Source: Eledone cirrhosa (lineage: Eukaryota). From it: a stretch of DNA of 64,000 nucleotides. The position numbers were made by a program, and so were the translations under genes. Below the pieces are notes generated by a model. The model was not told the DNA's origin. It was given only the letters and a program-made list of their open reading frames with translations, and made no database searches. The DNA lies in NCBI GenBank assembly GCA_964016885.1, contig OZ024742.1:221650001-221714000 (forward strand), given 5' to 3'. Positions 11,919-58,621 of the stretch are shown here, piece by piece. Position 1 is the first letter of the stretch. Each line of letters begins with the position of its first letter.

Positions 11919-14469
11919 CCCTTTAGCATTCACATTGAATTGTCAAATGTCATGTTCATCTATTCGCATTATTTTCACTTAATTATACTCAAGAGGGTTA
12001 TCAATTTTATTTGTTTCTAATTACTTTAATTTTCTATGTGCAGACTTGAAATTTTGTCAGTAGACGTTTAAAGAACTATAATTTACAATTATATATGTTT
12101 ACCTGATTTTTTTTTGTTAAATTTGACTTTTATGGGCAGGTAAAATTAATTAACAGGTGTAAAAGTAATAACTTTATGGATAAACACAAAAATTTAAACT
12201 TTATCTGCCTTACCTGTTAGATTTGTTGCAAAAAAATCCAATAATGATCTAGATGCTGATTTCCATCAATTCTAGCAGTTTTCCGAACAGGTGAATTAAT
12301 TAAAAATGCAGGTGTAATCAGTACAATGTTTTAGTCTTTCTCTACATTCTAGGCAAATATTTTCATTGAAAAAAATGTATAAAACCTTTTCACCAGTCAA
12401 AATAATATTGGCAATGTACTCTTACACAATGTACGGTGTAAAATTACGTAACAGAATGTTCCCAATATATAAGTTCATTAACAGGTGTGATGCAGGTGTG
12501 TCACAGGTGAATGCAGGTGTTTTTGTATATGTGTGCTAATATATTTTTAAAATATTGTTTTCAATATTGTCAGACAATATTTCTATCGTGATACTGCCCA
12601 AAGCACCCTTTACATAAGGGCACTTTGCAAAAGGAACACATAAATAGGGTTTGGATTGCGTAACCTTTAACAGTTTTTCTCTTTTGCAAAGAGCACAATC
12701 GGCAAACCTTCCTCCTACCATCAATTCTCTCCACTTTATGAAAATCAATATTTTCTTTGTGGACCACTGCTAATTTTGATTTTTTTTCCCAGCTTTGTGT
12801 TTGCGAGAAGTATATCCCCCACGTAGCTGGGATGCAATGTCCACGCGAAATTTCATGTGGCAGTAGTCCTTTGGTGGTGGCGGATCCTTGTGGCTTTTAG
12901 TAAATACAATATAAGAATTCACAATGGTTAAATTCACTAAAAACCACGATGTATCTCCACCATTTCTTTCCAGGGCGTCCAACTGGGTAATACGCGCAAT
13001 ATTGGTCGGATTTGTCAACCCCACCCATATATTTATTGTAGGAGAGGTTAACTAAAGGTCTACCCTCGGCCCCAACACCTGGTTGTTGGTTAGAACTCGG
13101 GAACAAAATTTGCCGTTTGTCTTTGAACACTGTGGCTAACATGTTCTCTTTTTGCATTTGGAGAATGTCTCCTCTGTTTTTTTAGTTTCGCAACTTTTAT
13201 TTCTTGGGGTAGCCCTTTCCGATTGCTCATTATTGTGCCGCAGGTGTATGTATTTACAAGGGCAAGATCCTCTGCTAAAAGCACCGAAGAAAAAAGACGG
13301 TCATAATAAATGTGTCTGTGTTGAAAGTGGAAGGGTTGAGTCAGCGACCACACAACATCGTAACCCAACCCGTGCTTTCACTCTCCGTTAAGTTTTTTTC
13401 CTGTGTAAACATCAAAGTTTACACAGTATCCCGTGTCCGATTCACACAGTTCCCACACTTTGATGCCCCATTTGGTGGGTTTAGCTGGCATATACTGTCT
13501 GAAATGAACCCTACCCTTATACCCAATCATAGCTTCATCAACACTAAGATTTTTTCCAGGTAAATACATACTTTTAAATTTTTCTGTCAACATTTCAATT
13601 AATGGTCGTACTTTGTACAGTGGGTCGTAATTCGATTCATTTCTACCAGGGGCATTTGTAGTATCAACCAGATGCAAATACTGGTTTAATTTTATAAATC
13701 TCGTTTTGGCCATAATACTAGATATATAAGGGTCACCAAACCTTATATCAGTACTCCAATAATTCCACAGTCGTGGAAATTGTTTAATACCAAACAATGT
13801 TTATGGTAAAAAACGCTTTCATTTCGGCAGAATCTGTCGGATGCCATAACAGATCGGGTTTTCCTCGATTAGAAATCTGTTGTTGTGCATAGCGATTTGT
13901 CTCTTCTGCCACAACTTCGAAGAAAGTTTGTGGTAGAAATAAAAAAAAATAATCCAGAGCTTTAGCATCGGGTGGTAATGTGTGTTGTGGTCCAGAATTT
14001 TCATTAAAATCCGAAACATGTATCGGTGTTGTTTCTTTCAACCACGTTGGTGTTTTTTCAATGGTGTCAGATATCTCTTCGCTTTCACTTTCAAAGTGAC
14101 TATCATCATCATCAGATATATCTGATTCATTTGAAGATAAATCACTGATATTATCTTCTGTTTCTTTTTTATCTTGAATGTCGTAGGATGTAAAACCTTC
14201 AAAATCGTTGTCGCTGCTTTCGGAAGCCATGTTACAATTTCAAAGTTAAAAACACGTGTTATCACAAGGTCTTTAACTATACTAAGAGTTAATTTTCGCG
14301 CGTAAGGGCTTTATCTCGCTGTAATCTCGAATTGACGAGATTTTGATGATGTCAATGTTTATTTTTAGAAGGAGATCTACGAGTGGTCTGAAATGTCGGT
14401 TTTTGTCGGTTTGAATAAATGAAAGGGGACATAATTTTGTCGGTTTTTGTCGCTTTGAACGCTAAAGGG
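11919..14469 (-). mobile_element. Full-length decayed piggyBac DNA transposon (2551 bp)
   Basis: TTAA duplications at 11915-11918 and 14470-14473; TIRs CCCTTTAGCATTCA / TGAACGCTAAAGGG (13 of 14 match); internal transposase remnants. Confidence 0.93.
12570..14230 (-). pseudogene. Frameshifted piggyBac (PGBD-type) transposase
   Basis: Six consecutive - strand ORF pieces: acidic N-terminus, SVDEAMI..KGR..RQYMPAKPTKWGIK, YYDRLFSS, TCGT..NRKGLP, YNKYMGGVDKSDQ (DDD triad) and C-terminal CxxC..CxxC..C..C..H cysteine-rich domain. Confidence 0.92.
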
Positions 14470-15052: not shown

Positions 15053-16842
15053 AAGTCACTGGTACTTATCAACTATTGGGAAATAAAAGTTAGTCACTCT
15101 TGGCAAAACCCTAGAGACCAGGAGTATATTTGAACCAGTTCTGTACTGTCTATAATCTTTTTCTCTGATGTCCCCTTAGTGTTGGTTCTGTGATAAATTA
15201 TACCCAGAGCACTATATGTTGATAGAACAAATGTAAGCAAGGAGTGGGCCACCAGCCTGTCTGAGAAATCAGTAGCTCCAATTAAGTACTGGTTTGATCT
15301 GCAGTAACCTATCTGACCCTTGCTAGCAAGGGGAACAGGTGTTTGATGATGATAATGGTGACTGGCATAGATTGGATAAGCCATTTTGCAGCTAGACAAC
15401 CTTCCTATTGCCAGCTGTTACTAATTTTAAATATTGTACTTATTCCACTGGTATTCACCCATCAAATTGAAACATCAGTTCCAGGTCTTCTTTTTTAAGT
15501 GGTTAAAAGACTTTTAGATAAATATAAACACTTCAAAACAAACGGTTTTATATCATAGAACCAGGAGCAGTTTCAGGTAGTTTGGTATTAAAAGGGTTAA
15601 ACAGATCTGATTATGTAGAAACTAAGTACCATACAATAGCTTTATTGTATCTTATATCATATATATACACTTGTGCAGACTTATATAGAAGATTGCAATT
15701 GAATGAGTCATTATTATTGGTTGAAGTTGGGTTTATGAATACACTTAAAATATCAGCAATGTTCTATTTTTAATTGCTGCCAAGTATATTATATGTATTA
15801 TGTATTTTATTACTGCTTAAGTATTAATTCTCCTCACACCATTCATTTGAGTCAACTGTCTTGACACAAGCATGGCTGTGTCATTAAGAAGTTCACTTTG
15901 CAACCATGTGATTTCAGGTTCTATCCTACTGTGTGACACCTTAGAAAAGTGTCTTCTAATATAGCCCTGGACTGACCAATGTGTTGTGAATGAATTCAGT
16001 AGACAAGAGCTGTATGTGGCCCAGTGGTTACGGTGCTCGTCTCGCATCTGGTTATAGGTTTGATTCTTGACTGGCATATTGCATTCTTGAGTAAAACGCT
16101 TCATTTCACTTTATTTTTCATGATAGGACTGAGTCTCTTATCTTTAAAACACTCAAGAATCTTCATACTAAGAGATAACAACTTTGTAGGAAGCAAGTAA
16201 ACCTACATAAGTATGAGCTGTCTCTTTTTTTCATTTTCATATAGGTATATGTATATATTTGAATGTATGTGAGGAAGAGAGAAAAGAATGAGAGCAATGA
16301 AGAACTCAAGAATAGCAATGGAGTGAAAGAAGCCTCAACTTTGTGTGTGTGATAGTTTATTGAAAGTAAGTATAGGGTTTGTAGTATAAGTAGAAAAGAG
16401 GAAAGTGCATAGCTTAGTAGTTAAGGTGTTGGAGTCACAATCATGAGGTCATGTGTGTGATTCCCAAACCAGGTGATGCATTGTGTTCTGATGCAAGACA
16501 CTTTATTTTACACTGCTTTTTCATGATATAACTGGGGTTCTTATCATTAAAACGCCTAAGAAACTTTCTATGAGGTGGAACCTAGGAGGCCAGCTAAACA
16601 TGCATAGATGTGAGTTGTAACATGTTAGGGCTGGGGCCCTATCATTAAAACAGCCAATTCTGAAGTGCAGCTTCGTAGGAGGCCAGTTAAACTTGCATAG
16701 GTGTGAGTTGTAAATTACATTTTTTATTTCAATTCAATTGAAGGATTTATTTTCTTTTGATTTAATGTCTTTTTTTTTTCTTTTTTTTTTTTCTGTCGTT
16801 AAACATATTCTGATATTGACTCATTGTTGTTCTTTCTTTCAG

Positions 16843-20117: not shown

Positions 20118-21506
20118 GTAAGTCTTAACTATTAAATTATGGGTGAAGGTGCATGGCATAGGGGTTAGGGTGTTGGACTCACGATCTTAAGGGCATAGGT
20201 TCAATTCTTGGACCAGGCAGCATGTTGTGTTCTTGAGCAAGACACTTCATTTCACAATGCTTTTCATGATAGAACTGGCGTCCTTATCATTAAAACACAT
20301 AAGAAACGTCTTATGAGAAACCTCATATAAGGCCAGTTAAACTTACACTTCTTTCTTATTATTTTATCTTAATGATGGAAGGTTCGACAGTGAGCACTCG
20401 ATTGTTCAGTCAACTGAACATCTAACTCATGAAGTAACATGTAAATGGTTGAGTATTCGCAAGCAGAATATGCATGATACAATATGTAACTAGCTGGACA
20501 TTTTTGAATTACATGTACAATCCTTCTGATGGCCTTCCACACAGTTTCTGTCTACCCAGTTTCACTCTTATGGCATGGGTCAACACAATGCTATGGTAAA
20601 GATGCTATGCAGTGGGATCGAACCCAGGACCACATGATTCCAAAACAAACTTCTTAACTGCTCAAGCTAAGCCTGTGTCTGCATACAACTGAAAACTGCA
20701 GTGCACCACTACATTACTACTATACACTACTGAAAATTGCAGTGTATTAATTGAAGTTGCCCAAATAACTGTAAATGTGAACCTAATTGTTCAAGCAGTA
20801 GAATTAATTACCTACAATGACCTTTACCAAAAAAGTAGACAACACCCAAATAAATTAACTTCTCTAATTCATGTTACCATTCATATTGTAGTTATAACAA
20901 TATACTACAAGCACAGTAATTTAGTATGTGTTCAAATATTACTGATTACAAGTATTTTATGGCCATTTTTCATGCTAAAGTACAGACTAGCTTTGTAGGT
21001 CCCGTGAGAGTCTTGTAGTCACCATGGGGTGCTTTTTGAAGCAATTCGTTTATAGCCTGATGACTTTCATCATTACTGTTTAACACCTATTTTCCATGTT
21101 TGCTTGGGTTAGATGGCTGTCGCGTGCTGAGGCCAGACTTGTCAGGTGACTAGGTCCTGCTCATATGCTTTATTTTGGCTTGATCTCTACAGTTGGATGC
21201 CCTTCCTAACACCAAACCACTTTACAGCACCAACCAGAAACTTTTTAGTCACTTCTTATGACAGACAGGGATACCATGTGTATATTTGAAACTGGATGCA
21301 CTCACTGTTATATATTGTTGATATATTTCTGATTATTATTTTTAAAAAGGATGGTGGAATGACAATATTTGTAGGGTTACATAAAAATGTGTAAAAATGA
21401 GGACAAAAACAAAGTGTCCTCCTGTACTATTCTTAATTTTTTTTTTTTGTAAATCTTTTGTAGTTAATAAAAAAAAAAATCATCATTATTATTGTTATTA
21501 TTCTAG

Positions 21507-23368: not shown

Positions 23369-23967
23369 TGAAGGATGACAGCTGCATAAAAAGGTGCAGA
23401 GCACTAGAAGTTGATGGAAACCGCGGAGTGGGGAGACCCAAGATGACTTGGGATGAGGTGATAAAAGCCGACCTTACCCAACTACACCTCTCAAAGTCAA
23501 TGACACACGACCGTGACTTCTGGCGTCACGCAGTAATACAGGGTACCCGACCTCCCATGGGTACATGCTGAAGCATATAAACAATATGCCCCCCCCCCCC
23601 CCCCCCCCCCCCACCGCAAGGTGGTCGTGGAGGTGCCACGGCAAAAAAGCACCCAGCCCACACTGTAAAGTGGACGTGTAGACGCCACGAAAAAGCACCC
23701 AGCACTCACTCGTGGAGGTGCCACGGCAAAAAAGCACCCAGCCCACACTGTAAAGTGGACGTGTAGGCGCCACGAAAAAGCACCCAGCACTCACTGTAAA
23801 TGAGGTTGGTGTTAGGAAGGGCATCCAGCTGTAGAAATCAAGCCAGATCAGTTCCTGTATGAGCAAGGCATGGTCAGCCGACCAGACACTGCCCACAACA
23901 GGACAACCCGTCTAACCCATGCTAGCGTGGAAGAACGGACGTAAAACGGTGATGATGATGATGATGA
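23369..23967 (+). mobile_element. Short 3' fragment of the same RTE LINE subfamily, in intron 5
   Basis: Nearly identical to 43042-43553, plus an 85-bp internal duplication and an expanded poly-C; (GAT)n tail. Confidence 0.92.
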
Positions 23968-33157: not shown

Positions 33158-33744
33158 GTGAGTAAATAATTTCAACAAATTCTTGGATTTTAGAGAGCCA
33201 TGTGAGGGTTATGTGATTAAGAAGTTTGCTTCACGCCGATGTGATTTGGAATTTCATCCCATGGTGTAGTATCATAGATACGTGCCTTCAACCATAGCCA
33301 CAAGCCAATCAATGCTTTGTAATTGAATTTGGTAGGCAGAAACTATGTATCTATATATATATATATATATATATATCATCATCATCATTTTACGTCCGCT
33401 TTTCCCTGCTTGCAAGGGTGGGACGGGAACTGATTCTGGCTTGATTTCTACAGCTGGATGCCCTTCCTAAAACCAACCTCATTTACAGTGAGTGCTGGGT
33501 GCTTTTTTGCCGTGGCACCTCCACGACCAGTTTGCAGTGGAATGATATGGTCCTATCATCTCATTTCTATCTACAGCTGAGTAAACTGGAGCAATGTGAA
33601 ATAAAGTGTCCTTCTCAAGGAAACAACACATCACTCGGTCTGAGAATTGAACTCACAACCTTTCGATTGCAAGGCCAATGCTCTAACCACTAAGCCATGT
33701 GCCTCCATATATGCACGCGCGCACACGCACACGCACACATATAC

Positions 33745-33779
<35 letters not shown>

Positions 33780-33792
33780 CATATATATATAC

Positions 33793-34003
<211 letters not shown>

Positions 34004-34044
34004 TATATACATATATATATATATATACATACATATATATATAT

Positions 34045-34075
<31 letters not shown>

Positions 34076-34081
34076 CATACA

Positions 34082-34117
<36 letters not shown>

Positions 34118-34122
34118 CATAC

Positions 34123-34173
<51 letters not shown>

Positions 34174-34245
34174 CATATACATATATATATATATATATAT
34201 AATATATATATATATATATACATATATATATACATATATATATAC

Positions 34246-34290
<45 letters not shown>

Positions 34291-34399
34291 CATATGTATA
34301 TATATATATATATATATATACATATATATATACATATGTATATATACATATGTATATATACATATATATATATACATATATATATATATGTATATATAC

Positions 34400-34434
<35 letters not shown>

Positions 34435-34447
34435 CATGTATATATTC

Positions 34448-34555
<108 letters not shown>

Positions 34556-34738
34556 TCCCAGACCCACACTGTAAATGTGGTTGGTGTTAGGAAGGGCATC
34601 CAACTGTAGAAAACCTGCCAGACAGTCCTATGCGAGCAAGACAATCACTCTTGCCTCAAGTGGGACTACCCCCGTCCAAACCCATGCAAGCGTGGAACAC
34701 GGACGTTAAACGTTGATGATGATGATGATGATGATGAT
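34556..34738 (+). mobile_element. RTE LINE extreme 3' end (second subfamily); another antisense copy at about 11473-11795
   Basis: Matches 39060-39248 including the (GAT)n tail. Confidence 0.85.
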
Positions 34739-34744
34739 ATATAC

Positions 34745-34881
<137 letters not shown>

Positions 34882-34890
34882 CATATATAC

Positions 34891-34953
<63 letters not shown>

Positions 34954-34999
34954 CATATATATATACATATATATATATACATATATATATATATACACA

Positions 35000-35121
<122 letters not shown>

Positions 35122-35145
35122 TATATATATATATATACACATATA

Positions 35146-35179
<34 letters not shown>

Positions 35180-35216
35180 CACACATATATATATATATAT
35201 TTATATATATATATAT

Positions 35217-35347
<131 letters not shown>

Positions 35348-35393
35348 TATATATACATATATATATATATACATATATATATATACACATATA

Positions 35394-35427
<34 letters not shown>

Positions 35428-35456
35428 CATATATACATATATATATACATATATAT

Positions 35457-35705
<249 letters not shown>

Positions 35706-35754
35706 CATATATACATATATATATATATATATGTACATATATATATATATATAC

Positions 35755-35895
<141 letters not shown>

Positions 35896-35900
35896 CGTAC

Positions 35901-35937
<37 letters not shown>

Positions 35938-35943
35938 CGTACA

Positions 35944-35981
<38 letters not shown>

Positions 35982-36035
35982 CATATATACATATATATAT
36001 ACATATATATATATATATGTACATATATATATATG

Positions 36036-38645: not shown

Positions 38646-39217
38646 TGTTTACTCGAGAGAAGGCTGCGTTGGTATGGACACGTGATGCGCATGAACGTCG
38701 ATAGCTGTATTACAAAGTGCAGGGCAATAAAGATAGACGGTAGCCACGGAATAGGCAGACCTAGAAAAACATGGGATGAGCTGATAAACTCCGACCTCAC
38801 ACACTTACACCTCTCCAAGACAATGTCACTGGACCGTGACCTTTGGCGGTACTCAGTAACAGAGAAGACCCGCCTTGCCAGTAGGCATCTCTAACAAACT
38901 ACACCCCGTCCCGCCACCACCCTCACCCCATCCACACCACCCCGTTCTATGTAAAGTTATGTTGGTGCCGCGAAACAAATGAGATCGTGTAGGTGTCACG
39001 ACAAAAAACACACAGTCCACGCTGTAATGTGGCCGTGTAGGCAACACGGTAAAAAACCTCCCAGACCCACACTGTAAATGTGGTTGGTGTTAGGAAGGGC
39101 ATCCAACTGTAGAAAACCTGCCAGACAGTCCTATGCGAGCAAGACAATCACTCTTGCCTCAAGTGGGACTACCCCCGTCCAAACCCATGCAAGCGTGGAA
39201 CACGGGACGTTAAACGT

Positions 39218-39248
<31 letters not shown>
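38646..39248 (+). mobile_element. RTE LINE 3' fragment (second subfamily)
   Basis: [28 protein letters not shown], 3' UTR, (GAT)n tail. Confidence 0.92.
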
Positions 39249-41869: not shown

Positions 41870-41922
41870 ATATATGTGTATATATATATATGTATATATA
41901 TGTATATATATATATATATGTA

Positions 41923-43553
41923 CCAGGGAAAGCCACCACTGATGCCCTCTTCCTTGTGAGGCAATTACAGGAAAAGTACCTAGCTAAAAGTAAGCCACTC
42001 TACTTGGCATTTGTCGACCTTGAGAAAGCCTTTGACAGAGTTCCACGTGCAGTAATCTGGTGGGCTCTTAGAAAACTAGGAGTAGATGAATGACTTGTGA
42101 AAGCGGTACAAGCCATGTATAGGGGAGCAGTCAGCAAAGTTAGGATTGGCAATGAGTATAGCGAGGAATTTAGCGTACAGGTTGGGGTCCACCAGGGCTC
42201 TGTTCTTAGCCCTCTCCTGTTCATCATAGTCCTGCAGGCAATAACGGAGGAGTTTAAGACCGGATGCCCATGGGAACTCCTGTATGCTGATGACCTCGCA
42301 CTCATAGCTGAATCTATGGTAGAACTAGAGAATAAATTCCAAACCTGGAAGCAGGGACTAGAGAGAAAGGGCCTCAAAGTCAACATGACAAAGACTAAGG
42401 TCCTTATAAGTAGACGAGAAAACAGAACCCAGGTCCCCTCAGGGAAATGGCCTTGCTCAGTATGTAGGAAAGGTGTAGGTAGGAACTCCATTCTCTGCCC
42501 CAAATGCAAACAATGGGTACACAAGAGATGTAGCGGGATCTCAGGAAGCTTAATTAAGAATGTAGGATTCACATGCAGCAGCTGTGCTGAAACAGCAAGC
42601 AAACAGCCACAGGAAACAAGTACCACCAATCTCTGGGAGGGCCCTGTAGAAACAGTAGACAGCTTCTGCTACCTAGGTGACCGAATTAGCAACGGAGGTG
42701 GGTGTTCAGAAAGTACAATAACTAGGGTAAGAACGGGATGGAAGAAGTTTAGGGAACTACTACCACTGCTAGCTGCAAAAGGCTTCTCCCTCAGAATGAA
42801 AGGCAGACTGTATGATGCGTGTATCCGAACAGCGATGTTGCATGGTAGTGAGACCTGGGCGCTGAAGGTGGAAGACTTACGTAGATTAGAGAGAAACGAA
42901 GCCTGCATGCTCCGATGGATGTGTAACAGTAATATACGTGAACGACAAAGCATAAAGGAATTGAGAGAGAGACTGAGCATAAGAGGAATCAAATGCTGCG
43001 TGCAGGAGATGCGGTTACGCTGGTATGGACATGTGATGCGTATGAAGGATGCCAGCTGCATAAAAAGGTGCAGAGCACTAGAAGTTGATGGAAACCGCGG
43101 AGTGGGGAGACCCAAGATGACTTGGGATGAGGTGATAAAAGCCGACCTTACCCAACTACACCTCTCAAAGTCAATGACACACGACCGTGACTTCTGGCGT
43201 CACGCAGTAATACAGGGTACCCGACCTCCCATGGGTACATGCTGAAGCATATAAACAATATGCCCCCACTCCCCCCACCGCAAGGTGGTCGTGGAGGTGC
43301 CACGGCAAAAAAGCATCCAGCCCACACTGTAAAGTGGACGTGTAGGCGCCACGAAAAAGCACCCAGCACTCACTGTAAATGAGGTTGGTGTTAGGAAGGG
43401 CATCCAGCTGTAGAAATCAAGCCAGATCAGTTCCTGTATGAGCAAGGCATGGTCAGCCGACCAGACACTGCCCACAACAGGACAACCCGTCTAACCCATG
43501 CTAGCGTGGAAGAACGGACGTAAAACGGTGATGATGATGATGATGATGATGAT
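41923..43553 (+). mobile_element. 5'-truncated RTE-clade LINE: RT domain, C-terminus, 3' UTR and (GAT)n tail; one in-frame stop at 42091
   Basis: [45 protein letters not shown] and [11 protein letters not shown] motifs; ORF ends 43245; (GAT)n at 43530-43553. Confidence 0.95.
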
Positions 43554-43567
43554 GTATGTATATATAT

Positions 43568-45169: not shown

Positions 45170-45984
45170 CATCATCATCATCATCAACGTTTAACGTCCG
45201 TGTTCCACGCTTGCATGGGTTTGGACGGGGGTAGTCCCACTTGAGGCAAGAGTGATTGTCTTGCTCGCATAGGACTGTCTGGCAGGTTTTCTACAGTTGG
45301 ATGCCCTTCCTAACACCAACCACATTTACAGTGTGGGTCTGGGAGGTTTTTACCGTGTTGCCTACACGGCCACATTACAGCGTGGACTGTGTGTTTTTTT
45401 GTCGTGACACCTACACGATCTCATTTGTTTCGGCCTCGATGGCGCGGCACCAACATAACTTTACATAGAACGGGTGGTGTGGATGGGGTGGGGGTGGTGG
45501 GACGGGGTGTATTTTGTTAGAGATGCCTACTGGCTGGAGTAGGTTTTACTATATATTTAGGTAAGGCGGGTCTTCTCTGTTACTGAGTACCGCCAAAGGT
45601 CTCGGTCCAGTGACATTGTCTTGGAGAGGTGTAAGTGTGTGATGTCGGAGTTTATCAGCTCGTCCCAGGTTTTTCTAGGTCTGCCTATTCCGTGACTACC
45701 GTCTATCTTTATTGCCCTGCACTTTGTTATACAGCTATCGACTTTCATGCGCATCACGTGTCCATACCAACGTAGCCTTCTCTCGAGTAAACAACATCTG
45801 ATCCCTCTTATCTCTAATTTTTTCCTTAGTTCGTTTATGCTTTGCCGTTCACGTATATTACTGTTACACATCCAGCGGAGCATGCAAGCTTCGTTCCTCT
45901 CTAGTCTGCGTATATCCTCTGCACACAATGCCCAGGTCTCACTGCCATGCAGCATTGCTGTTCGTATGCAGGCATCGTACAACA
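45168..45984 (-). mobile_element. RTE LINE 3' fragment (second subfamily), antisense
   Basis: ORF 45557..45985 ([17 protein letters not shown]); 3' UTR is the reverse complement of 38895-39248; (ATC)n tail. Confidence 0.92.
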
Positions 45985-46012
45985 TATATATGTATATATA
46001 TATATATATATG

Positions 46013-46089
<77 letters not shown>

Positions 46090-46094
46090 GTATG

Positions 46095-46147
<53 letters not shown>

Positions 46148-46160
46148 GTATGTATGTATG

Positions 46161-46228
<68 letters not shown>

Positions 46229-46261
46229 GTATATATATATATGTATGTATGTATATATATG

Positions 46262-46298
<37 letters not shown>

Positions 46299-46425
46299 GT
46301 ATGTATGTATATATATGTATATATATGTATATATATATATGTATGTATGTATATATATGTATGTATGTATGTATATATATGTATGTATGTATATATATGT
46401 ATGTATGTATATATATGTATGTATG

Positions 46426-46458
<33 letters not shown>

Positions 46459-46579
46459 GTATGTATATATATGTATGTATGTATATATATATATGTATGT
46501 ATGTATATATATATATGTATGTATGTATATATATATATGTATGTATATGTATGTATGTATATATATATGTATGTATGTA

Positions 46580-46624
<45 letters not shown>

Positions 46625-46639
46625 GTATATATATATATG

Positions 46640-46691
<52 letters not shown>

Positions 46692-46743
46692 TGTATATAT
46701 ATGTATATATATATATGTATATATATATATGTATATATATATG

Positions 46744-46774
<31 letters not shown>

Positions 46775-46793
46775 GTATATATATATGTATATG

Positions 46794-46824
<31 letters not shown>

Positions 46825-46921
46825 GTATGTATATATATGTATATATATATATGTATATGTATATATATATATGTATGTATATATATGTATATATATATAT
46901 GTATATGTATATATATATATG

Positions 46922-46968
<47 letters not shown>

Positions 46969-47189
46969 GTATATATATATATGTATATATATATATGTAT
47001 ATATATATATGTATATATATATATGTATATATATATATGTATATATATATATGTATATATATGTATATATATATATGTATATATATATATGTATATATAT
47101 GTATATATATATATGTATATATATATATGTATATATATGTATATATATATATGTATATATATATATGTATATATGTATATATATATATG

Positions 47190-47220
<31 letters not shown>

Positions 47221-47239
47221 GTATATATATATGTATATG

Positions 47240-47372
<133 letters not shown>

Positions 47373-47437
47373 GTATGTATATATATATATGTATGTATGT
47401 ATATGTATGTATGTATATATATATATATGTATGTATG

Positions 47438-47471
<34 letters not shown>

Positions 47472-47532
47472 TGTATGTATGTATATGTATGTATGTATAT
47501 GTATGTATGTATGTATATATATATATGTATGT

Positions 47533-47566
<34 letters not shown>

Positions 47567-47581
47567 GTATATATATATATG

Positions 47582-47684
<103 letters not shown>

Positions 47685-47855
47685 GTATATATATGTATGT
47701 ATGTATATATATGTATGTATATGTATGTATGTATGTATGTATATATATGTATGTATGTATGTATATATATGTATGTATGTATATATATGTATGTATGTAT
47801 GTATATATATGTATGTATGTATGTATATATATGTATGTATGTATGTATATATATG

Positions 47856-47887
<32 letters not shown>

Positions 47888-47931
47888 TATATATATGTAT
47901 ATATATGTATGTATGTATATATGTATGTATG

Positions 47932-47965
<34 letters not shown>

Positions 47966-47993
47966 TATGTATGTATGTATGTATATATGTATA

Positions 47994-48026
<33 letters not shown>

Positions 48027-48085
48027 ATGTATGTATGTATATATATATATGTATGTATATATATATATATATGTATGTATATATA

Positions 48086-48121
<36 letters not shown>

Positions 48122-48311
48122 TATATGTATGTATGTATGTATGTATATATGTATGTATGTATGTATATATGTATGTATATATATGTATATATGTATGTAT
48201 ATATATATGTATGTATATATATATGTATGTATATATATATGTATGTATATATATATGTGTATATATATATATATATATGTATGTATATATATATGTATGT
48301 ATATATATATG

Positions 48312-48380
<69 letters not shown>

Positions 48381-48381
48381 G

Positions 48382-48571
<190 letters not shown>

Positions 48572-48605
48572 TGTATGTATATATATATATGTATGTATAT
48601 ATATG

Positions 48606-48639
<34 letters not shown>

Positions 48640-48786
48640 TATATGTATGTATGTATATATATATGTATGTATATATATATGTATGTATGTATGTATATAT
48701 ATATGTATGTATATATATATGTATGTATGTATATATATATGTATGTATGTGTATATATATATATATGTATGTATATATATATGTAT

Positions 48787-48987
<201 letters not shown>

Positions 48988-48992
48988 TGTAT

Positions 48993-51900
48993 ATTAGAAA
49001 TTGGAATAAATGCTCTGAAATAGCGATATATATGTGAATATAGACATAGAATATTCGAAAATATTCTGTATGTTTATAATAAACATTTTGAAGACCTAAT
49101 CGCTATAGAATAGAATACGTCACGTATTACAATTAGATTCTCGATAAAAGCAAGGGAAGTAAGTCTACGCGTTTCATTCTTGTTAGAATTCATCAGGACT
49201 ACATATCCAGTGCTTTCATCGAGAATGACACAGCTAGAGACTTATAGAATACTTAGCTGTGTACAGGAACTGGTTTGAAAGAGCGGTTGCCGGTCAGGCA
49301 GAAATTAGAAATTGGAATAAATGCTCTGAAATAGCGATATATATGTGAATATAGACATAGAATATTCGAAAATATTCTGTATGTTTATAATAAACATTTT
49401 GAAGACCTAATCGCTATAGAATAGAATACGTCACGTATTACAATTAGATTCTCGATAAAAGCAAGGGAAGTAAGTCTACGCGTTTCATTCTTGTTAGAAT
49501 TCATCAGGACTACATATCCAGTGCTTTCATCGAGAATGACACAGCTAGAGACTTATAGAATACTTAGCTGTGTACAGGAACTGGTTTGAAAGAGCGGTTG
49601 CCGGTCAGGCAGAAATTAGAAATTGGAATAAATGCTCTGAAATAGCGATATATATGTGAATATAGACATAGAATATTCGAAAATATTCTGTATGTTTATA
49701 ATAAACATTTTGAAGACCTAATCGCTATAGAATAGAATACGTCACGTATTACAATTAGATTCTCGATAAAAGCAAGGGAAGTAAGTCTACGCGTTTCATT
49801 CTTGTTAGAATTCATCAGGACTACATATCCAGTGCTTTCATCGAGAATGACACAGCTAGAGACTTATAGAATACTTAGCTGTGTACAGGAACTGGTTTGA
49901 AAGAGCGGTTGCCGGTCAGGCAGAAATTAGAAATTGGAATAAATGCTCTGAAATAGCGATATATATGTGAATATAGACATAGAATATTCGAAAATATTCT
50001 GTATGTTTATAATAAACATTTTGAAGACCTAATCGCTATAGAATAGAATACGTCACGTATTACAATTAGATTCTCGATAAAAGCAAGGGAAGTAAGTCTA
50101 CGCGTTTCATTCTTGTTAGAATTCATCAGGACTACATATCCAGTGCTTTCATCGAGAATGACACAGCTAGAGACTTATAGAATACTTAGCTGTGTACAGG
50201 AACTGGTTTGAAAGAGCGGTTGCCGGTCAGGCAGAAATTAGAAATTGGAATAAATGCTCTGAAATAGCGATATATATGTGAATATAGACATAGAATATTC
50301 GAAAATATTCTGTATGTTTATAATAAACATTTTGAAGACCTAATCGCTATAGAATAGAATACGTCACGTATTACAATTAGATTCTCGATAAAAGCAAGGG
50401 AAGTAAGTCTACGCGTTTCATTCTTGTTAGAATTCATCAGGACTACATATCCAGTGCTTTCATCGAGAATGACACAGCTAGAGACTTATAGAATACTTAG
50501 CTGTGTACAGGAACTGGTTTGAAAGAGCGGTTGCCGGTCAGGCAGAAATTAGAAATTGGAATAAATGCTCTGAAATAGCGATATATATGTGAATATAGAC
50601 ATAGAATATTCGAAAATATTCTGTATGTTTATAATAAACATTTTGAAGACCTAATCGCTATAGAATAGAATACGTCACGTATTACAATTAGATTCTCGAT
50701 AAAAGCAAGGGAAGTAAGTCTACGCGTTTCATTCTTGTTAGAATTCATCAGGACTACATATCCAGTGCTTTCATCGAGAATGACACAGCTAGAGACTTAT
50801 AGAATACTTAGCTGTGTACAGGAACTGGTTTGAAAGAGCGGTTGCCGGTCAGGCAGAAATTAGAAATTGGAATAAATGCTCTGAAATAGCGATATATATG
50901 TGAATATAGACATAGAATATTCGAAAATATTCTGTATGTTTATAATAAACATTTTGAAGACCTAATCGCTATAGAATAGAATACGTCACGTATTACAATT
51001 AGATTCTCGATAAAAGCAAGGGAAGTAAGTCTACGCGTTTCATTCTTGTTAGAATTCATCAGGACTACATATCCAGTGCTTTCATCGAGAATGACACAGC
51101 TAGAGACTTATAGAATACTTAGCTGTGTACAGGAACTGGTTTGAAAGAGCGGTTGCCGGTCAGGCAGAAATTAGAAATTGGAATAAATGCTCTGAAATAG
51201 CGATATATATGTGAATATAGACATAGAATATTCGAAAATATTCTGTATGTTTATAATAAACATTTTGAAGACCTAATCGCTATAGAATAGAATACGTCAC
51301 GTATTACAATTAGATTCTCGATAAAAGCAAGGGAAGTAAGTCTACGCGTTTCATTCTTGTTAGAATTCATCAGGACTACATATCCAGTGCTTTCATCGAG
51401 AATGACACAGCTAGAGACTTATAGAATACTTAGCTGTGTACAGGAACTGGTTTGAAAGAGCGGTTGCCGGTCAGGCAGAAATTAGAAATTGGAATAAATG
51501 CTCTGAAATAGCGATATATATGTGAATATAGACATAGAATATTCGAAAATATTCTGTATGTTTATAATAAACATTTTGAAGACCTAATCGCTATAGAATA
51601 GAATACGTCACGTATTACAATTAGATTCTCGATAAAAGCAAGGGAAGTAAGTCTACGCGTTTCATTCTTGTTAGAATTCATCAGGACTACATATCCAGTG
51701 CTTTCATCGAGAATGACACAGCTAGAGACTTATAGAATACTTAGCTGTGTACAGGAACTGGTTTGAAAGAGCGGTTGCCGGTCAGGCAGAAATTAGAAAT
51801 TGGAATAAATGCTCTGAAATAGCGATATATATGTGAATATAGACATAGAATATTCGAAAATATTCTGTATGTTTATAATAAACATTTTGAAGACCTAATC

Positions 51901-52270
51901 GCTATAGAATAGAATACGTCACGTATTACAATTAGATTCTCGATAAAAGCAAGGGAAGTAAGTCTACGCGTTTCATTCTTGTTAGAATTCATCAGGACTA
52001 CATATCCAGTGCTTTCATCGAGAATGACACAGCTAGAGACTTATAGAATACTTAGCTGTGTACAGGAACTGGTTTGAAAGAGCGGTTGCCGGTCAGGCAG
52101 AAATTAGAAATTGGAATAAATGCTCTGAAATAGCGATATATATGTGAATATAGACATAGAATATTCGAAAATATTCTGTATGTTTATAATAAACATTTTG
52201 AAGACCTAATCGCTATAGAATAGAATACGTCACGTATTACAATTAGATTCTCGATAAAAGCAAGGGAAGT
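48993..52270 (-). repeat. Tandem array of 311-bp units (about 10.5 copies) with 10 hammerhead ribozyme motifs on the - strand; retrozyme/Penelope-type satellite, left arm
   Basis: Unit starts (attagaaattgg) at 48993, 49304, 49615...; tcatcag (reverse complement of CTGATGA) at 49190, 49501 ... 51989, period 311. Confidence 0.93.
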
Positions 52271-55200
52271 GTCATTCTCGATGAAAGCACTGGATATGTA
52301 GTCCTGATGAATTCTAACAAGAATGAAACGCGTAGACTTACTTCCCTTGCTTTTATCGAGAATCTAATTGTAATACGTGACGTATTCTATTCTATAGCGA
52401 TTAGGTCTTCAAAATGTTTATTATAAACATACAGAATATTTTCGAATATTCTATGTCTATATTCACATATATATCGCTATTTCAGAGCATTTATTCCAAT
52501 TTCTAATTTCTGCCTGACCGGCAACCGCTCTTTCAAACCAGTTCCTGTACACAGCTAAGTATTCTATAAGTCTCTAGCTGTGTCATTCTCGATGAAAGCA
52601 CTGGATATGTAGTCCTGATGAATTCTAACAAGAATGAAACGCGTAGACTTACTTCCCTTGCTTTTATCGAGAATCTAATTGTAATACGTGACGTATTCTA
52701 TTCTATAGCGATTAGGTCTTCAAAATGTTTATTATAAACATACAGAATATTTTCGAATATTCTATGTCTATATTCACATATATATCGCTATTTCAGAGCA
52801 TTTATTCCAATTTCTAATTTCTGCCTGACCGGCAACCGCTCTTCCAAACCAGTTCCTGTACACAGCTAAGTATTCTATAAGTCTCTAGCTGTGTCATTCT
52901 CGATGAAAGCACTGGATATGTAGTCCTGATGAATTCTAACAAGAATGAAACGCGTAGACTTACTTCCCTTGCTTTTATCGAGAATCTAATTGTAATACGT
53001 GACGTATTCTATTCTATAGCGATTAGGTCTTCAAAATGTTTATTATAAACATACAGAATATTTTCGAATATTCTATGTCTATATTCACATATATATCGCT
53101 ATTTCAGAGCATTTATTCCAATTTCTAATTTCTGCCTGACCGGCAACCGCTCTTTCAAACCAGTTCCTGTACACAGCTAAGTATTCTATAAGTCTCTAGC
53201 TGTGTCATTCTCGATGAAAGCACTGGATATGTAGTCCTGATGAATTCTAACAAGAATGAAACGCGTAGACTTACTTCCCTTGCTTTTATCGAGAATCTAA
53301 TTGTAATACGTGACGTATTCTATTCTATAGCGATTAGGTCTTCAAAATGTTTATTATAAACATACAGAATATTTTCGAATATTCTATGTCTATATTCACA
53401 TATATATCGCTATTTCAGAGCATTTATTCCAATTTCTAATTTCTGCCTGACCGGCAACCGCTCTTTCAAACCAGTTCCTGTACACAGCTAAGTATTCTAT
53501 AAGTCTCTAGCTGTGTCATTCTCGATGAAAGCACTGGATATGTAGTCCTGATGAATTCTAACAAGAATGAAACGCGTAGACTTACTTCCCTTGCTTTTAT
53601 CGAGAATCTAATTGTAATACGTGACGTATTCTATTCTATAGCGATTAGGTCTTCAAAATGTTTATTATAAACATACAGAATATTTTCGAATATTCTATGT
53701 CTATATTCACATATATATCGCTATTTCAGAGCATTTATTCCAATTTCTAATTTCTGCCTGACCGGCAACCGCTCTTTCAAACCAGTTCCTGTACACAGCT
53801 AAGTATTCTATAAGTCTCTAGCTGTGTCATTCTCGATGAAAGCACTGGATATGTAGTCCTGATGAATTCTAACAAGAATGAAACGCGTAGACTTACTTCC
53901 CTTGCTTTTATCGAGAATCTAATTGTAATACGTGACGTATTCTATTCTATAGCGATTAGGTCTTCAAAATGTTTATTATAAACATACAGAATATTTTCGA
54001 ATATTCTATGTCTATATTCACATATATATCGCTATTTCAGAGCATTTATTCCAATTTCTAATTTCTGCCTGACCGGCAACCGCTCTTTCAAACCAGTTCC
54101 TGTACACAGCTAAGTATTCTATAAGTCTCTAGCTGTGTCATTCTCGATGAAAGCACTGGATATGTAGTCCTGATGAATTCTAACAAGAATGAAACGCGTA
54201 GACTTACTTCCCTTGCTTTTATCGAGAATCTAATTGTAATACGTGACGTATTCTATTCTATAGCGATTAGGTCTTCAAAATGTTTATTATAAACATACAG
54301 AATATTTTCGAATATTCTATGTCTATATTCACATATATATCGCTATTTCAGAGCATTTATTCCAATTTCTAATTTCTGCCTGACCGGCAACCGCTCTTTC
54401 AAACCAGTTCCTGTACACAGCTAAGTATTCTATAAGTCTCTAGCTGTGTCATTCTCGATGAAAGCACTGGATATGTAGTCCTGATGAATTCTAACAAGAA
54501 TGAAACGCGTAGACTTACTTCCCTTGCTTTTATCGAGAATCTAATTGTAATACGTGACGTATTCTATTCTATAGCGATTAGGTCTTCAAAATGTTTATTA
54601 TAAACATACAGAATATTTTCGAATATTCTATGTCTATATTCACATATATATCGCTATTTCAGAGCATTTATTCCAATTTCTAATTTCTGCCTGACCGGCA
54701 ACCGCTCTTTCAAACCAGTTCCTGTACACAGCTAAGTATTCTATAAGTCTCTAGCTGTGTCATTCTCGATGAAAGCACTGGATATGTAGTCCTGATGAAT
54801 TCTAACAAGAATGAAACGCGTAGACTTACTTCCCTTGCTTTTATCGAGAATCTAATTGTAATACGTGACGTATTCTATTCTATAGCGATTAGGTCTTCAA
54901 AATGTTTATTATAAACATACAGAATATTTTCGAATATTCTATGTCTATATTCACATATATATCGCTATTTCAGAGCATTTATTCCAATTTCTAATTTCTG
55001 CCTGACCGGCAACCGCTCTTTCAAACCAGTTCCTGTACACAGCTAAGTATTCTATAAGTCTCTAGCTGTGTCATTCTCGATGAAAGCACTGGATATGTAG
55101 TCCTGATGAATTCTAACAAGAATGAAACGCGTAGACTTACTTCCCTTGCTTTTATCGAGAATCTAATTGTAATACGTGACGTATTCTATTCTATAGCGAT

Positions 55201-55883
55201 TAGGTCTTCAAAATGTTTATTATAAACATACAGAATATTTTCGAATATTCTATGTCTATATTCACATATATATCGCTATTTCAGAGCATTTATTCCAATT
55301 TCTAATTTCTGCCTGACCGGCAACCGCTCTTTCAAACCAGTTCCTGTACACAGCTAAGTATTCTATAAGTCTCTAGCTGTGTCATTCTCGATGAAAGCAC
55401 TGGATATGTAGTCCTGATGAATTCTAACAAGAATGAAACGCGTAGACTTACTTCCCTTGCTTTTATCGAGAATCTAATTGTAATACGTGACGTATTCTAT
55501 TCTATAGCGATTAGGTCTTCAAAATGTTTATTATAAACATACAGAATATTTTCGAATATTCTATGTCTATATTCACATATATATCGCTATTTCAGAGCAT
55601 TTATTCCAATTTCTAATTTCTGCCTGACCGGCAACCGCTCTTTCAAACCAGTTCCTGTACACAGCTAAGTATTCTATAAGTCTCTAGCTGTGTCATTCTC
55701 GATGAAAGCACTGGATATGTAGTCCTGATGAATTCTAACAAGAATGAAACGCGTAGACTTACTTCCCTTGCTTTTATCGAGAATCTAATTGTAATACGTG
55801 ACGTATTCTATTCTATAGCGATTAGGTCTTCAAAATGTTTATTATAAACATACAGAATATTTTCGAATATTCTATGTCTATAT
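52269..55883 (+). repeat. Tandem array of the same 311-bp unit inverted (about 11.6 copies) with 12 hammerhead ribozyme motifs on the + strand; right arm
   Basis: Reverse complement of the left-arm unit; CTGATGA at 52304, 52615, 52926 ... 54481 ... 55725, period 311. One substitution noticed by eye (52844). Confidence 0.93.
52298..52341 (+). ncRNA. Minimal type I hammerhead ribozyme (representative copy; repeated every 311 nt)
   Basis: gtagtc (stem I) - CTGATGA - attct aaca agaat (stem II, 5 bp) - GAAA - CGCG - TA^ - gacttac (stem I partner, one bulge). Complete CUGANGA/GAAA/UH core. Palindromic ACGCGU stem III is typical of Penelope-associated dimeric hammerheads. Predicted cleavage after 52334. 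Confidence 0.88.
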
Positions 55884-55886
55884 ATG

Positions 55887-55991
<105 letters not shown>

Positions 55992-55992
55992 G

Positions 55993-56167
<175 letters not shown>

Positions 56168-56190
56168 GTATGTATATATATATGTATATG

Positions 56191-56319
<129 letters not shown>

Positions 56320-56421
56320 GTATGTATGTATATATATATGTATGTATATATATATGTATGTATGTATATATATATGTATGTATGTGTATATATATATATA
56401 TGTATGTATATATATATGTAT

Positions 56422-56485
<64 letters not shown>

Positions 56486-56508
56486 GTATATATATATGTA
56501 TATATATG

Positions 56509-56677
<169 letters not shown>

Positions 56678-56702
56678 GTATATATATATGTATATATATA
56701 TG

Positions 56703-56737
<35 letters not shown>

Positions 56738-56738
56738 G

Positions 56739-56769
<31 letters not shown>

Positions 56770-56770
56770 G

Positions 56771-56837
<67 letters not shown>

Positions 56838-56850
56838 GTATGTATATATG

Positions 56851-57087
<237 letters not shown>

Positions 57088-57386
57088 ATATATATATATG
57101 TATGTATATATATGTATATATATATATGTATGTATATATATATATATATATGTATGTATATATATGTATATATATATATGTATATATATATATGTATGTA
57201 TATATATATATATGTATGTATGTATATGTATATATATATATGTATATATATATATGTATGTATATATATATATATGTATGTATGTATATGTATATATATA
57301 TATATATGTATGTATATATATATATATGTATGTATGTATATGTATATATATATATATATGTATGTATATATATATGTATATATATG

Positions 57387-57419
<33 letters not shown>

Positions 57420-57430
57420 GTATATATATG

Positions 57431-57463
<33 letters not shown>

Positions 57464-57474
57464 GTATATATATG

Positions 57475-57585
<111 letters not shown>

Positions 57586-57702
57586 GTATGTATATATATA
57601 TGTATGTATGTATGTATATATATATATGTATGTATATATGTATGTATGTATATATTTATGTATATGTATGTATGTATGTATATATATATATGTATATATA
57701 TG

Positions 57703-57779
<77 letters not shown>

Positions 57780-57806
57780 GTATATATATACATATATATA
57801 TATATG

Positions 57807-57837
<31 letters not shown>

Positions 57838-57838
57838 G

Positions 57839-57869
<31 letters not shown>

Positions 57870-57871
57870 GT

Positions 57872-57905
<34 letters not shown>

Positions 57906-58187
57906 GTATATATATACATATATATACGTATGTATGTATATATATATATGTATGTATATATATATATGTATGTATATATATATGTATGTATGTATATATA
58001 TATATATGTATGTATATACATATATATACATATGTATGTATATATATATATGTATGTATATATATATATGTATGTATATATATATATATGTATGTATATA
58101 TATATATATGTATGTATATATATATATATGTATGTATATATATATATATGTATGTATATATATATATATATATATGTATATGTATGT

Positions 58188-58219
<32 letters not shown>

Positions 58220-58288
58220 GTATATATATACATATATATACATATGTATGTATATATATATATGTATGTATATATATATATATGTATG

Positions 58289-58319
<31 letters not shown>

Positions 58320-58340
58320 GTATGTATATATGTATGTATG

Positions 58341-58371
<31 letters not shown>

Positions 58372-58387
58372 GTATGTATATTGTGAA

Positions 58388-58503
58388 GGCGTGTGGCTGA
58401 ATGGTTAGAGTATTGGATTCACAATCGTGAGGTTGTGAGTTCGATTCCTGAACCAGGCGATGCGTTATGTCCTTGAGCAAGACACTTTATTTCACGTTGC
58501 TCC
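58388..58503 (+). mobile_element. tRNA-derived SINE with CORE-like domain; other copies near 2350-2600, 6830-7000 (-), 16012-16140, 16405-16720, 20149-20350, 33570-33705 (-)
   Basis: Pol III A box TGGCTGAATGG, B box GTTCGATTCC, followed by tgtccttgagcaagacacttt. Confidence 0.75.
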
Positions 58504-58621
58504 TTCTACCTGGAGTTGTGACCGATAGATAGTATTAGCAATTGGAAAGACCAACGGAAACATAGTTTCCTCGGTCCGATTTGACGAAAGTCGATCGACT
58601 AGAAAAAATGTATGTATATAT

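Follow-up and report, generated by a model that had tools for sequence, protein, structure and literature searches.

How does a non-coding ribozyme repeat enter an animal genome, and does its own cleavage shape the insertion? Integration of animal retrozymes has been proposed, and its mechanism left open, in the available text of two studies (PMC7229834; bioRxiv 10.64898/2026.07.22.740005). The question is posed anew by the window analyzed here, a 64-kb stretch of DNA from the octopod Eledone cirrhosa, in which Tandem Repeats Finder delimits two abutting 311-nt tandem arrays, 48993-52270 and 52269-55883, that meet head-to-head inside a beta-catenin intron. Positions within the unit (U, 52269-52579) are numbered from U1 = 52269, and the features are collected in Table 1. 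The locus is a real, young retrozyme-type array with the anatomy of a Penelope insertion; how it was made, and whether ribozyme cleavage placed its central joint, is weighed below.

Table 1. Features of the array, its ribozyme unit and its surroundings (window positions; U, position in the 311-nt unit)
Feature	Position	Strand	Description
Left (inverted) arm	48993-52270	minus	3278 nt, 10.5 units; inner end U72, outer end U239; 0 mismatches to unit
Right arm	52269-55883	plus	3615 nt, 11.6 units; inner end U1, outer end U194; 1 mismatch (52844)
Head-to-head junction	52269-52270		2-nt microhomology fitting both arms; known here from assembled sequence
Left outer end	48993-48994	minus	Sense 3' end U239 entering (AT)n; microhomology of 2 nt; candidate site of second priming
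Right outer end	55879-55883	plus	Sense 3' end U194; microhomology of 5 nt to (TA)n; candidate site of first priming
Type I hammerhead, first unit	52298-52341	plus	6-bp helix I carrying a single bulge; 5-bp helix II; 2-bp palindromic helix III
Long imperfect hairpin, hammerhead at apex	52274-52363	plus	Arms U6-21 / U80-95, 15/16 complementary
Host intron (last intron of beta-catenin gene)	33158-61091	plus	28 kb; GT..AG ends
Left target microsatellite	45984-48992	plus-strand G	(TA)n interrupted by G; 45984-48993 contains 328 G and 0 C
Right target microsatellite	55884-58370	plus-strand G	Same polarity as left; 200 G, 8 C in 55879-58370

The anatomy of the array, its homogeneity and its microhomologies are read directly from the assembled letters. 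Across both arms there are 22 units with a single mismatch in 6.9 kb, as would result from copying of one circular template, from a source array of very recent origin or from smoothing of the consensus. The two arms join as the original prediction described them, diverging from a 2-bp microhomology in which both bases fit either arm and running unequal lengths to different end points. The first base of the right arm lies just ahead of the outer helix, 5 nt before the 5' strand of the long hairpin (U6-21), again as foreseen. Both inner ends fall inside U1-97 (P about 0.10), and the arm lengths are similar, with a ratio of 0.91 (P 0.05-0.09 if the arms are independent). At both outer edges of the array the repeat reaches (AT)n with the 3' end of its sense strand, and the two ends are offset from each other by 45 nt of the unit; U194 and U206 are the only two unit sites with at least 5 nt of microhomology to (AT)n (joint random weight 0.026), and between them the predicted fold places a small UCACAU loop. 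No ORF of at least 100 aa was found inside the array, and no second copy of the unit was found elsewhere in the 64-kb window. The arms also constitute a 3278-bp near-perfect inverted repeat (48993-55617) with a spacer of 69 nt at 52271-52339, and the DNA palindrome so formed should be unstable.

Each complete unit holds a hammerhead core, 12 on the plus strand, spaced at 52304 + 311n, and 10 on the minus strand. The core consists of CUGAUGA (U36-42) and GAAACGCGUA (U57-66), the latter beginning with GAAA (U57-60), and forms a type I hammerhead whose predicted cut lies between U66 and U67 (52334/52335 in the first unit); the palindrome ACGCGU is also present. The helices were assigned by hand and from folding energy, and the unit fold has a z of -3.0, with none of 100 shuffles equally stable. 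Rfam returned no match at the gathering score, the nearest being a weak Hammerhead_HH9 match on one unit (17.8 bits, E 0.077, under the gathering score of 52), and exact hammerhead patterns gave 0 matches against metagenome and viral contigs. As helix III is short and palindromic, the hammerhead needs a second copy for a partner, and in a two-unit slice the modeled double-hammerhead fold reaches -81.4 kcal/mol against -82.1 for the free fold, 0.7 above the minimum. Self-cleavage of a unit transcript at U66/U67 is predicted on this model. The closing pair of helix II is A-U rather than the conserved G10.1-C11.1, and this closure together with the bulged helix I would count against strong ribozyme activity. 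In metazoan type I hammerheads, a short palindromic helix III is likewise described as making activity depend on a second copy, in the part of PMC4209133 available; the unit resembles these ribozymes in its 6-bp helix I, short palindromic helix III and tandem context, and differs from them in a 5-bp helix II closed by A-U and in a helix I bulge that is missing from most of the depth in one sequencing run, X4.

That run is one of four (X3, X4, X6 and X24) with which a single monomer (52430-52740) was compared. Part of the unit is present in 20 of the 24 runs listed, from 17 studies and under 18 organism codes, with a best share of 0.77; none of these 20 is listed as RNA. For near-identical unit words under so many codes, carry-over or diet is just as plausible a source as horizontal transfer, and since the low-level holders X6 and X3 yield one contig each, horizontal transfer is not claimed. 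The X6 contig is a 340-nt circular unit, while X24 yielded 0 reads and carries no weight either way. The X3 contig (depth 3) has both ends on the only GANTC site of the unit (U92-96), presumably a Hi-C restriction site, and looks like a restriction/ligation product; both X3 loose-end rows were excluded from the end counts.

X4 is one sample, which may or may not be related to the animal of the window, and it comprises 798 contigs, of which 317 match at 99% or more, 274 at 95-99%, 137 at 90-95% and 70 at under 90% identity. Its main unit type departs from the window unit in three respects, at 52515, at 52594 and through the absence of one base at 52648, and as the exact window unit is not in X4, this run is unable to confirm the array junction; among the X4 joints listed for the 798 contigs there is the tandem joint only, with no strand change, and such contigs show presence, not absence. 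The loose-end evidence comprises the 8 rows listed out of 48, six from X4 and two from X3. Among the six X4 rows listed, 8 contigs end into (AT)n at U206 and 2 do so at U239, the two sites being 33 nt apart, and 4 contigs have a 5'-side end at U183. The U239 end is the same base as the left outer end of the array (random weight 0.005). The clustering of ends at the cleavage site that the original prediction anticipated found no support, at low power: among the six X4 rows listed, 5'-side ends are absent from U60-80, and the X4 matches listed show no position where many ends accumulate. Candidate ends at U67, U68 and U225 carry element letters and were set aside as indel variants, and a contig of depth 5 that breaks at U66 and rejoins at U113 was left out of the cleavage-end count because CGTA is common to both places. 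X4 also holds an indel polymorphism equivalent to 52647-52648, directly after the predicted cut, the commoner form of which is without the helix I bulge; the inserted, bulged variant may be the slower-cleaving one.

The surroundings of the array bear on whether the assembly can be trusted. The 14 exon matches of P0001 lie on the plus strand, collinear on both sides of the array and contiguous across the intron, and the final exon shares 99% identity with a protein cluster of octopod beta-catenin. The target is a TA/TATG microsatellite, and a check for a target-site duplication found a flank match of 13 nt, a length reached by 47% of random flank pairs (P 0.47); such duplications are optional in PLEs (Penelope-like elements). 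Since neither flanks nor exons are mirrored, a simple fold-back artefact is unlikely: a folded read would mirror the flanks, both of which carry plus-strand G and not C, and the exons keep their order on either side. That a chimeric long read or consensus smoothing more generally produced the junction or the copy numbers is considered very improbable, in spite of the absence of the junction from the joints listed in the compared runs, of single-base irregularities in the flanking tracts that resemble read errors, and of perfect units that could reflect equal polishing; both outer ends coincide with sites used or favored in X4, and the layout is that known for PLEs.

The intron microsatellite holds further rearranged and inserted sequence. 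At about 36000 the (TA)n tract switches from C-type (33739-36000) to G-type within pure microsatellite, which represents an inverted segment or a tail-to-tail join without ribozyme involvement. Inversions of some kind thus occur in this intron, and they lend something to a DNA-level origin in which a direct array, either inserted or amplified on the spot, later had its left part inverted through template switching during replication of an unstable AT-rich tract. Such an origin is nevertheless rated as hardly probable, as the left flank was not inverted together with the arm, the outer break would have had to coincide by chance with U239, where an X4 end lies as well, and near-zero divergence allows little time for a second event. 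Three 5'-truncated copies of a single LINE 3' end with (TGA)n tails, which we take to be RTE, also lie in the intron microsatellite (34555-34738 and 38648-39248 on the plus strand, 45170-45985 on the minus strand), with 0 mismatches in about 155 nt compared. A longer related LINE fragment with RT and PHD domains (41920-43554) has a near-identical partner at 23369-23967; the RT ORF at 42094-43242 belongs to this separate fragment and is outside the array. An insert in the right-hand microsatellite (58380-58600), presumably SINE-like, has relatives at 16401-16599 and 20143-20342, and upstream of beta-catenin a broken DDE transposase remnant (12570-14239, minus strand; PF13843 at 13378-13797) is assumed to be piggyBac-like.

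The closest relatives of the array are found among described ribozyme elements. In animals, retrozymes are built of type I hammerhead units in tandem and are expressed in circular form, and their copying into tandem cDNA by PLEs has been proposed in the available text of PMC7229834, and the accessible part of a more recent preprint links them to the pLTRs of PLEs by distribution and phylogeny, calls the mechanism open, and reports cleavage of one of nine predicted dimers (bioRxiv 10.64898/2026.07.22.740005). Like the non-LTR retrozymes of these two sources, the array consists of non-coding tandem units, which span 170-400 nt there, each with a type I hammerhead and a self-paired fold; it differs in its internal head-to-head inversion and definable priming ends, neither of which is described in those parts of the sources. 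A full-text literature search, covering mostly titles and abstract starts outside the subscription papers, returned no octopod retrozymes and no inversion points at retrozyme cleavage sites, and the portions of PMC9977147 and PMC8490949 available hold nothing on inversion points. Hammerhead loci have been counted in the giant squid genome.

The second relative is the PLE insertion itself. In the text available, such insertions are described as partial tandem arrays next to an inverted copy truncated at its 5' end, with a tail of 30-40 bp on one end and a bias toward microsatellites (bioRxiv 10.1101/2021.04.23.441226), and their head-to-head junctions often contain palindromes (PMC3846280). The inverted 5' segment that the original prediction ascribed to a Penelope-like process agrees with this anatomy. 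The anole PLE, as far as PMC11167929 is available, nicks and extends both strands at AT-rich DNA in vitro, starts at two internal RNA sites whose interval equals the 30-40 bp tail, and primes without target homology. In common with these three sources, the array has tandem copies with an inverted 5'-truncated copy, a palindrome at the head-to-head junction, offset outer ends, an AT-rich/(TA)n target and a hammerhead in the repeat. It is set apart from PLE insertions by the lack of an RT/GIY-YIG ORF, by its 22 short units, by the 45-nt offset and by target microhomology at its ends. By analogy, the array would work like a non-autonomous PLE.

The reading preferred here, held with evenly balanced confidence, is the recent insertion of a non-autonomous Penelope-type ribozyme repeat (a non-LTR retrozyme) into (TA)n/TATG, with both target strands primed and the cDNAs joined at the hairpin. 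For the enzyme, the form of the template and the order of the steps, we infer the following. A PLE endonuclease/RT acting in trans would nick both target strands, the 3'-OH of the right flank priming at U194 and that of the left flank at U239, with the 45 nt between the two priming sites likened to the PLE tail. Each RT would then copy about 11 units from one type of template, either a rolled monomer circle or an uncut young multimer, until the cDNAs halt in or at the long ribozyme hairpin, at U72-74 and U1-3, and the two cDNA 3' ends would be joined through the 2-nt microhomology and filled in. The closeness of junction and cut would be due mainly to the position of the ribozyme at the tip of the hairpin, and cleavage would not be required.

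Several results speak for two-strand priming. The flanks are of one polarity with the gene collinear, and the X4 ends at U206 and U239 represent, respectively, a favored microhomology site and the very base used here. The recency of the insertion is supported by the single mismatch in 22 units, as opposed to the broad identity spread of the 798 X4 contigs. On the other side, no autonomous PLE partner was found within the 64-kb window, the 13-nt flank match gives no evidence of a target-site duplication, the X4 support amounts to two sites in one sample, the offset exceeds the 30-40 described for PLEs, the ends here use target microhomology whereas the anole PLE primes without homology, and the junction is not a clean product of annealing of the 16-nt hairpin arms, 27 extra nt having been kept. 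The similar arm lengths need an added assumption, such as simultaneous synthesis.

Arm length is where a single-cDNA explanation does better. By this account, a cDNA started at U194 copies 11.6 units to U1-3, folds back at U72-74, 69 nt away, returns over 10.5 units and joins the left flank; the RT stop would be U1-3, beyond an uncut ribozyme, and U72-74 would be the landing site only. Self-priming of this type accounts for the similar arms, as the 3278 nt of the left arm lie within the 3544 nt available and end 266 nt short, and the junction stands at the base of a palindrome-like hairpin, the situation in which self-priming has already been proposed for head-to-head PLE junctions in the available part of PMC3846280. 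It is still thought unlikely: the register of the hairpin predicts landing near U96 as opposed to the observed U72-74, the recurrence of U239 as an X4 end is left unexplained, and the variant at 52844 is without a mirror at 51766, the last being a weak point as a later change or error is possible.

The remaining question is whether the joint was set by cleavage. The left arm does begin 5 nt downstream of the predicted cut, or 7 nt without the microhomology (U72 as compared to U66/U67), just as the original prediction had it. Under uniform breakpoints, one arm falls within +0 to +5/+7 of the cut with P = 0.019-0.026, either inner end does so with P = 0.038-0.051, and either inner end falls within +/-7 with P = 0.094, while a microhomology of at least 2 nt is expected in 18% of random head-to-head joins. 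If the 3' arm of the hairpin fixes the junction, landing at most 8 nt from the cut has P about 0.27. The junction is also compatible with another parse, full run-off to U67 with 2 nt lost and 3 nt of microhomology, U67-69 read in reverse complement being identical to U3-5; the extra fit of this parse has P about 0.05. Proximity to the cut therefore exceeds chance only weakly, for one case chosen after the fact, and a single case is unable to separate cleavage from hairpin structure as the cause of the junction site.

Cleavage would enter if the left cDNA ran off the U67 end of its template, lost a few bases and was then joined or switched to another cDNA or molecule, the template having been either a long multimer with one cut or a circle that opened while being copied. 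Beyond the distance to the cut (P 0.02-0.09) and the run-off parse, this alternative draws on the modeled ability of a tandem dimer to take the double-hammerhead fold at +0.7 kcal/mol, and on the geometry of twin priming or post-insertion inversion, in which the left inner end would be the 5'-most point copied. In L1 twin priming, the inverted 5' part is primed from the second target strand and the junction shows short microhomology, as does the array; the array differs from it in lacking poly(A) priming, in its putative internal AT-rich priming sites at either end and in its tandem template. Run-off, in effect a variant of the two-strand priming model, is judged distinctly unlikely. It demands at least 10 uncut ribozymes downstream of one that was cut, a monomer circle would be without a partner for helix III, the predicted A-U closure of helix II is unfavorable, and to the post hoc single case and the P of about 0.27 is added the absence of any 5'-side end at U60-80 among the six X4 rows listed, at low power. 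In the anole PLE, according to the available text of PMC11167929, ribozyme cleavage is dispensable, 0 RNA-seq reads start or end at the cut and uncut RNA is the main substrate, which by analogy would also argue against it.

Of the proposal that reverse transcription reached a ribozyme-made 5' end, the retrotransposition origin is thus upheld by the priming-like outer ends, whereas a stop at the ribozyme end has behind it only the coincidence just described. Its suggested sequel, a fold-back from that end, fails on length, as the left-arm cDNA provides 3038 nt of template and the right arm needs 3615, a shortfall of 577 nt; a template switch to another molecule after run-off is possible. The further suggestion that the near-identical units come from rolling-circle copying holds insofar as one template type serves for 22 units, but a very young multimer fits equally. 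A circular template offers no 5' end, and a lone copy gives helix III no partner, so the circular-template and ribozyme-end proposals pull against each other. A composite in which the array is a frozen intermediate of retrozyme mobilization, with a PLE enzyme priming about 11 rounds of rolling-circle RT on each target strand at two fixed internal sites and one cDNA ended by template cleavage at U66/67, is regarded as quite doubtful.

For the host gene, the insertion means that beta-catenin pre-mRNA carries 12 sense hammerheads along with an almost perfect inverted repeat of 3.28 kb. Pairing of the repeat would engage 10 of these 12 with their antisense counterparts, while the first core would lie in the loop and the last beyond the paired part; a double-stranded-RNA or processing effect on the pre-mRNA is possible. 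For the element family, the link of the junction to the cleavage site is one weak coincidence, and the value of the locus lies in its youth, its four readable ends and its Penelope hallmarks, which make an open mechanistic question testable. A family-wide survey of ends in one octopod genome would test mobilization by PLEs, a circle as opposed to a multimer as template, and the role of cleavage. Were a cDNA here truly ended by cleavage, the ribozyme would set the length and the 5' boundary of the insertion, and were the array truly a frozen intermediate, it would be direct genomic evidence for trans-mobilization of animal retrozymes by PLEs and for a ribozyme role in integration.
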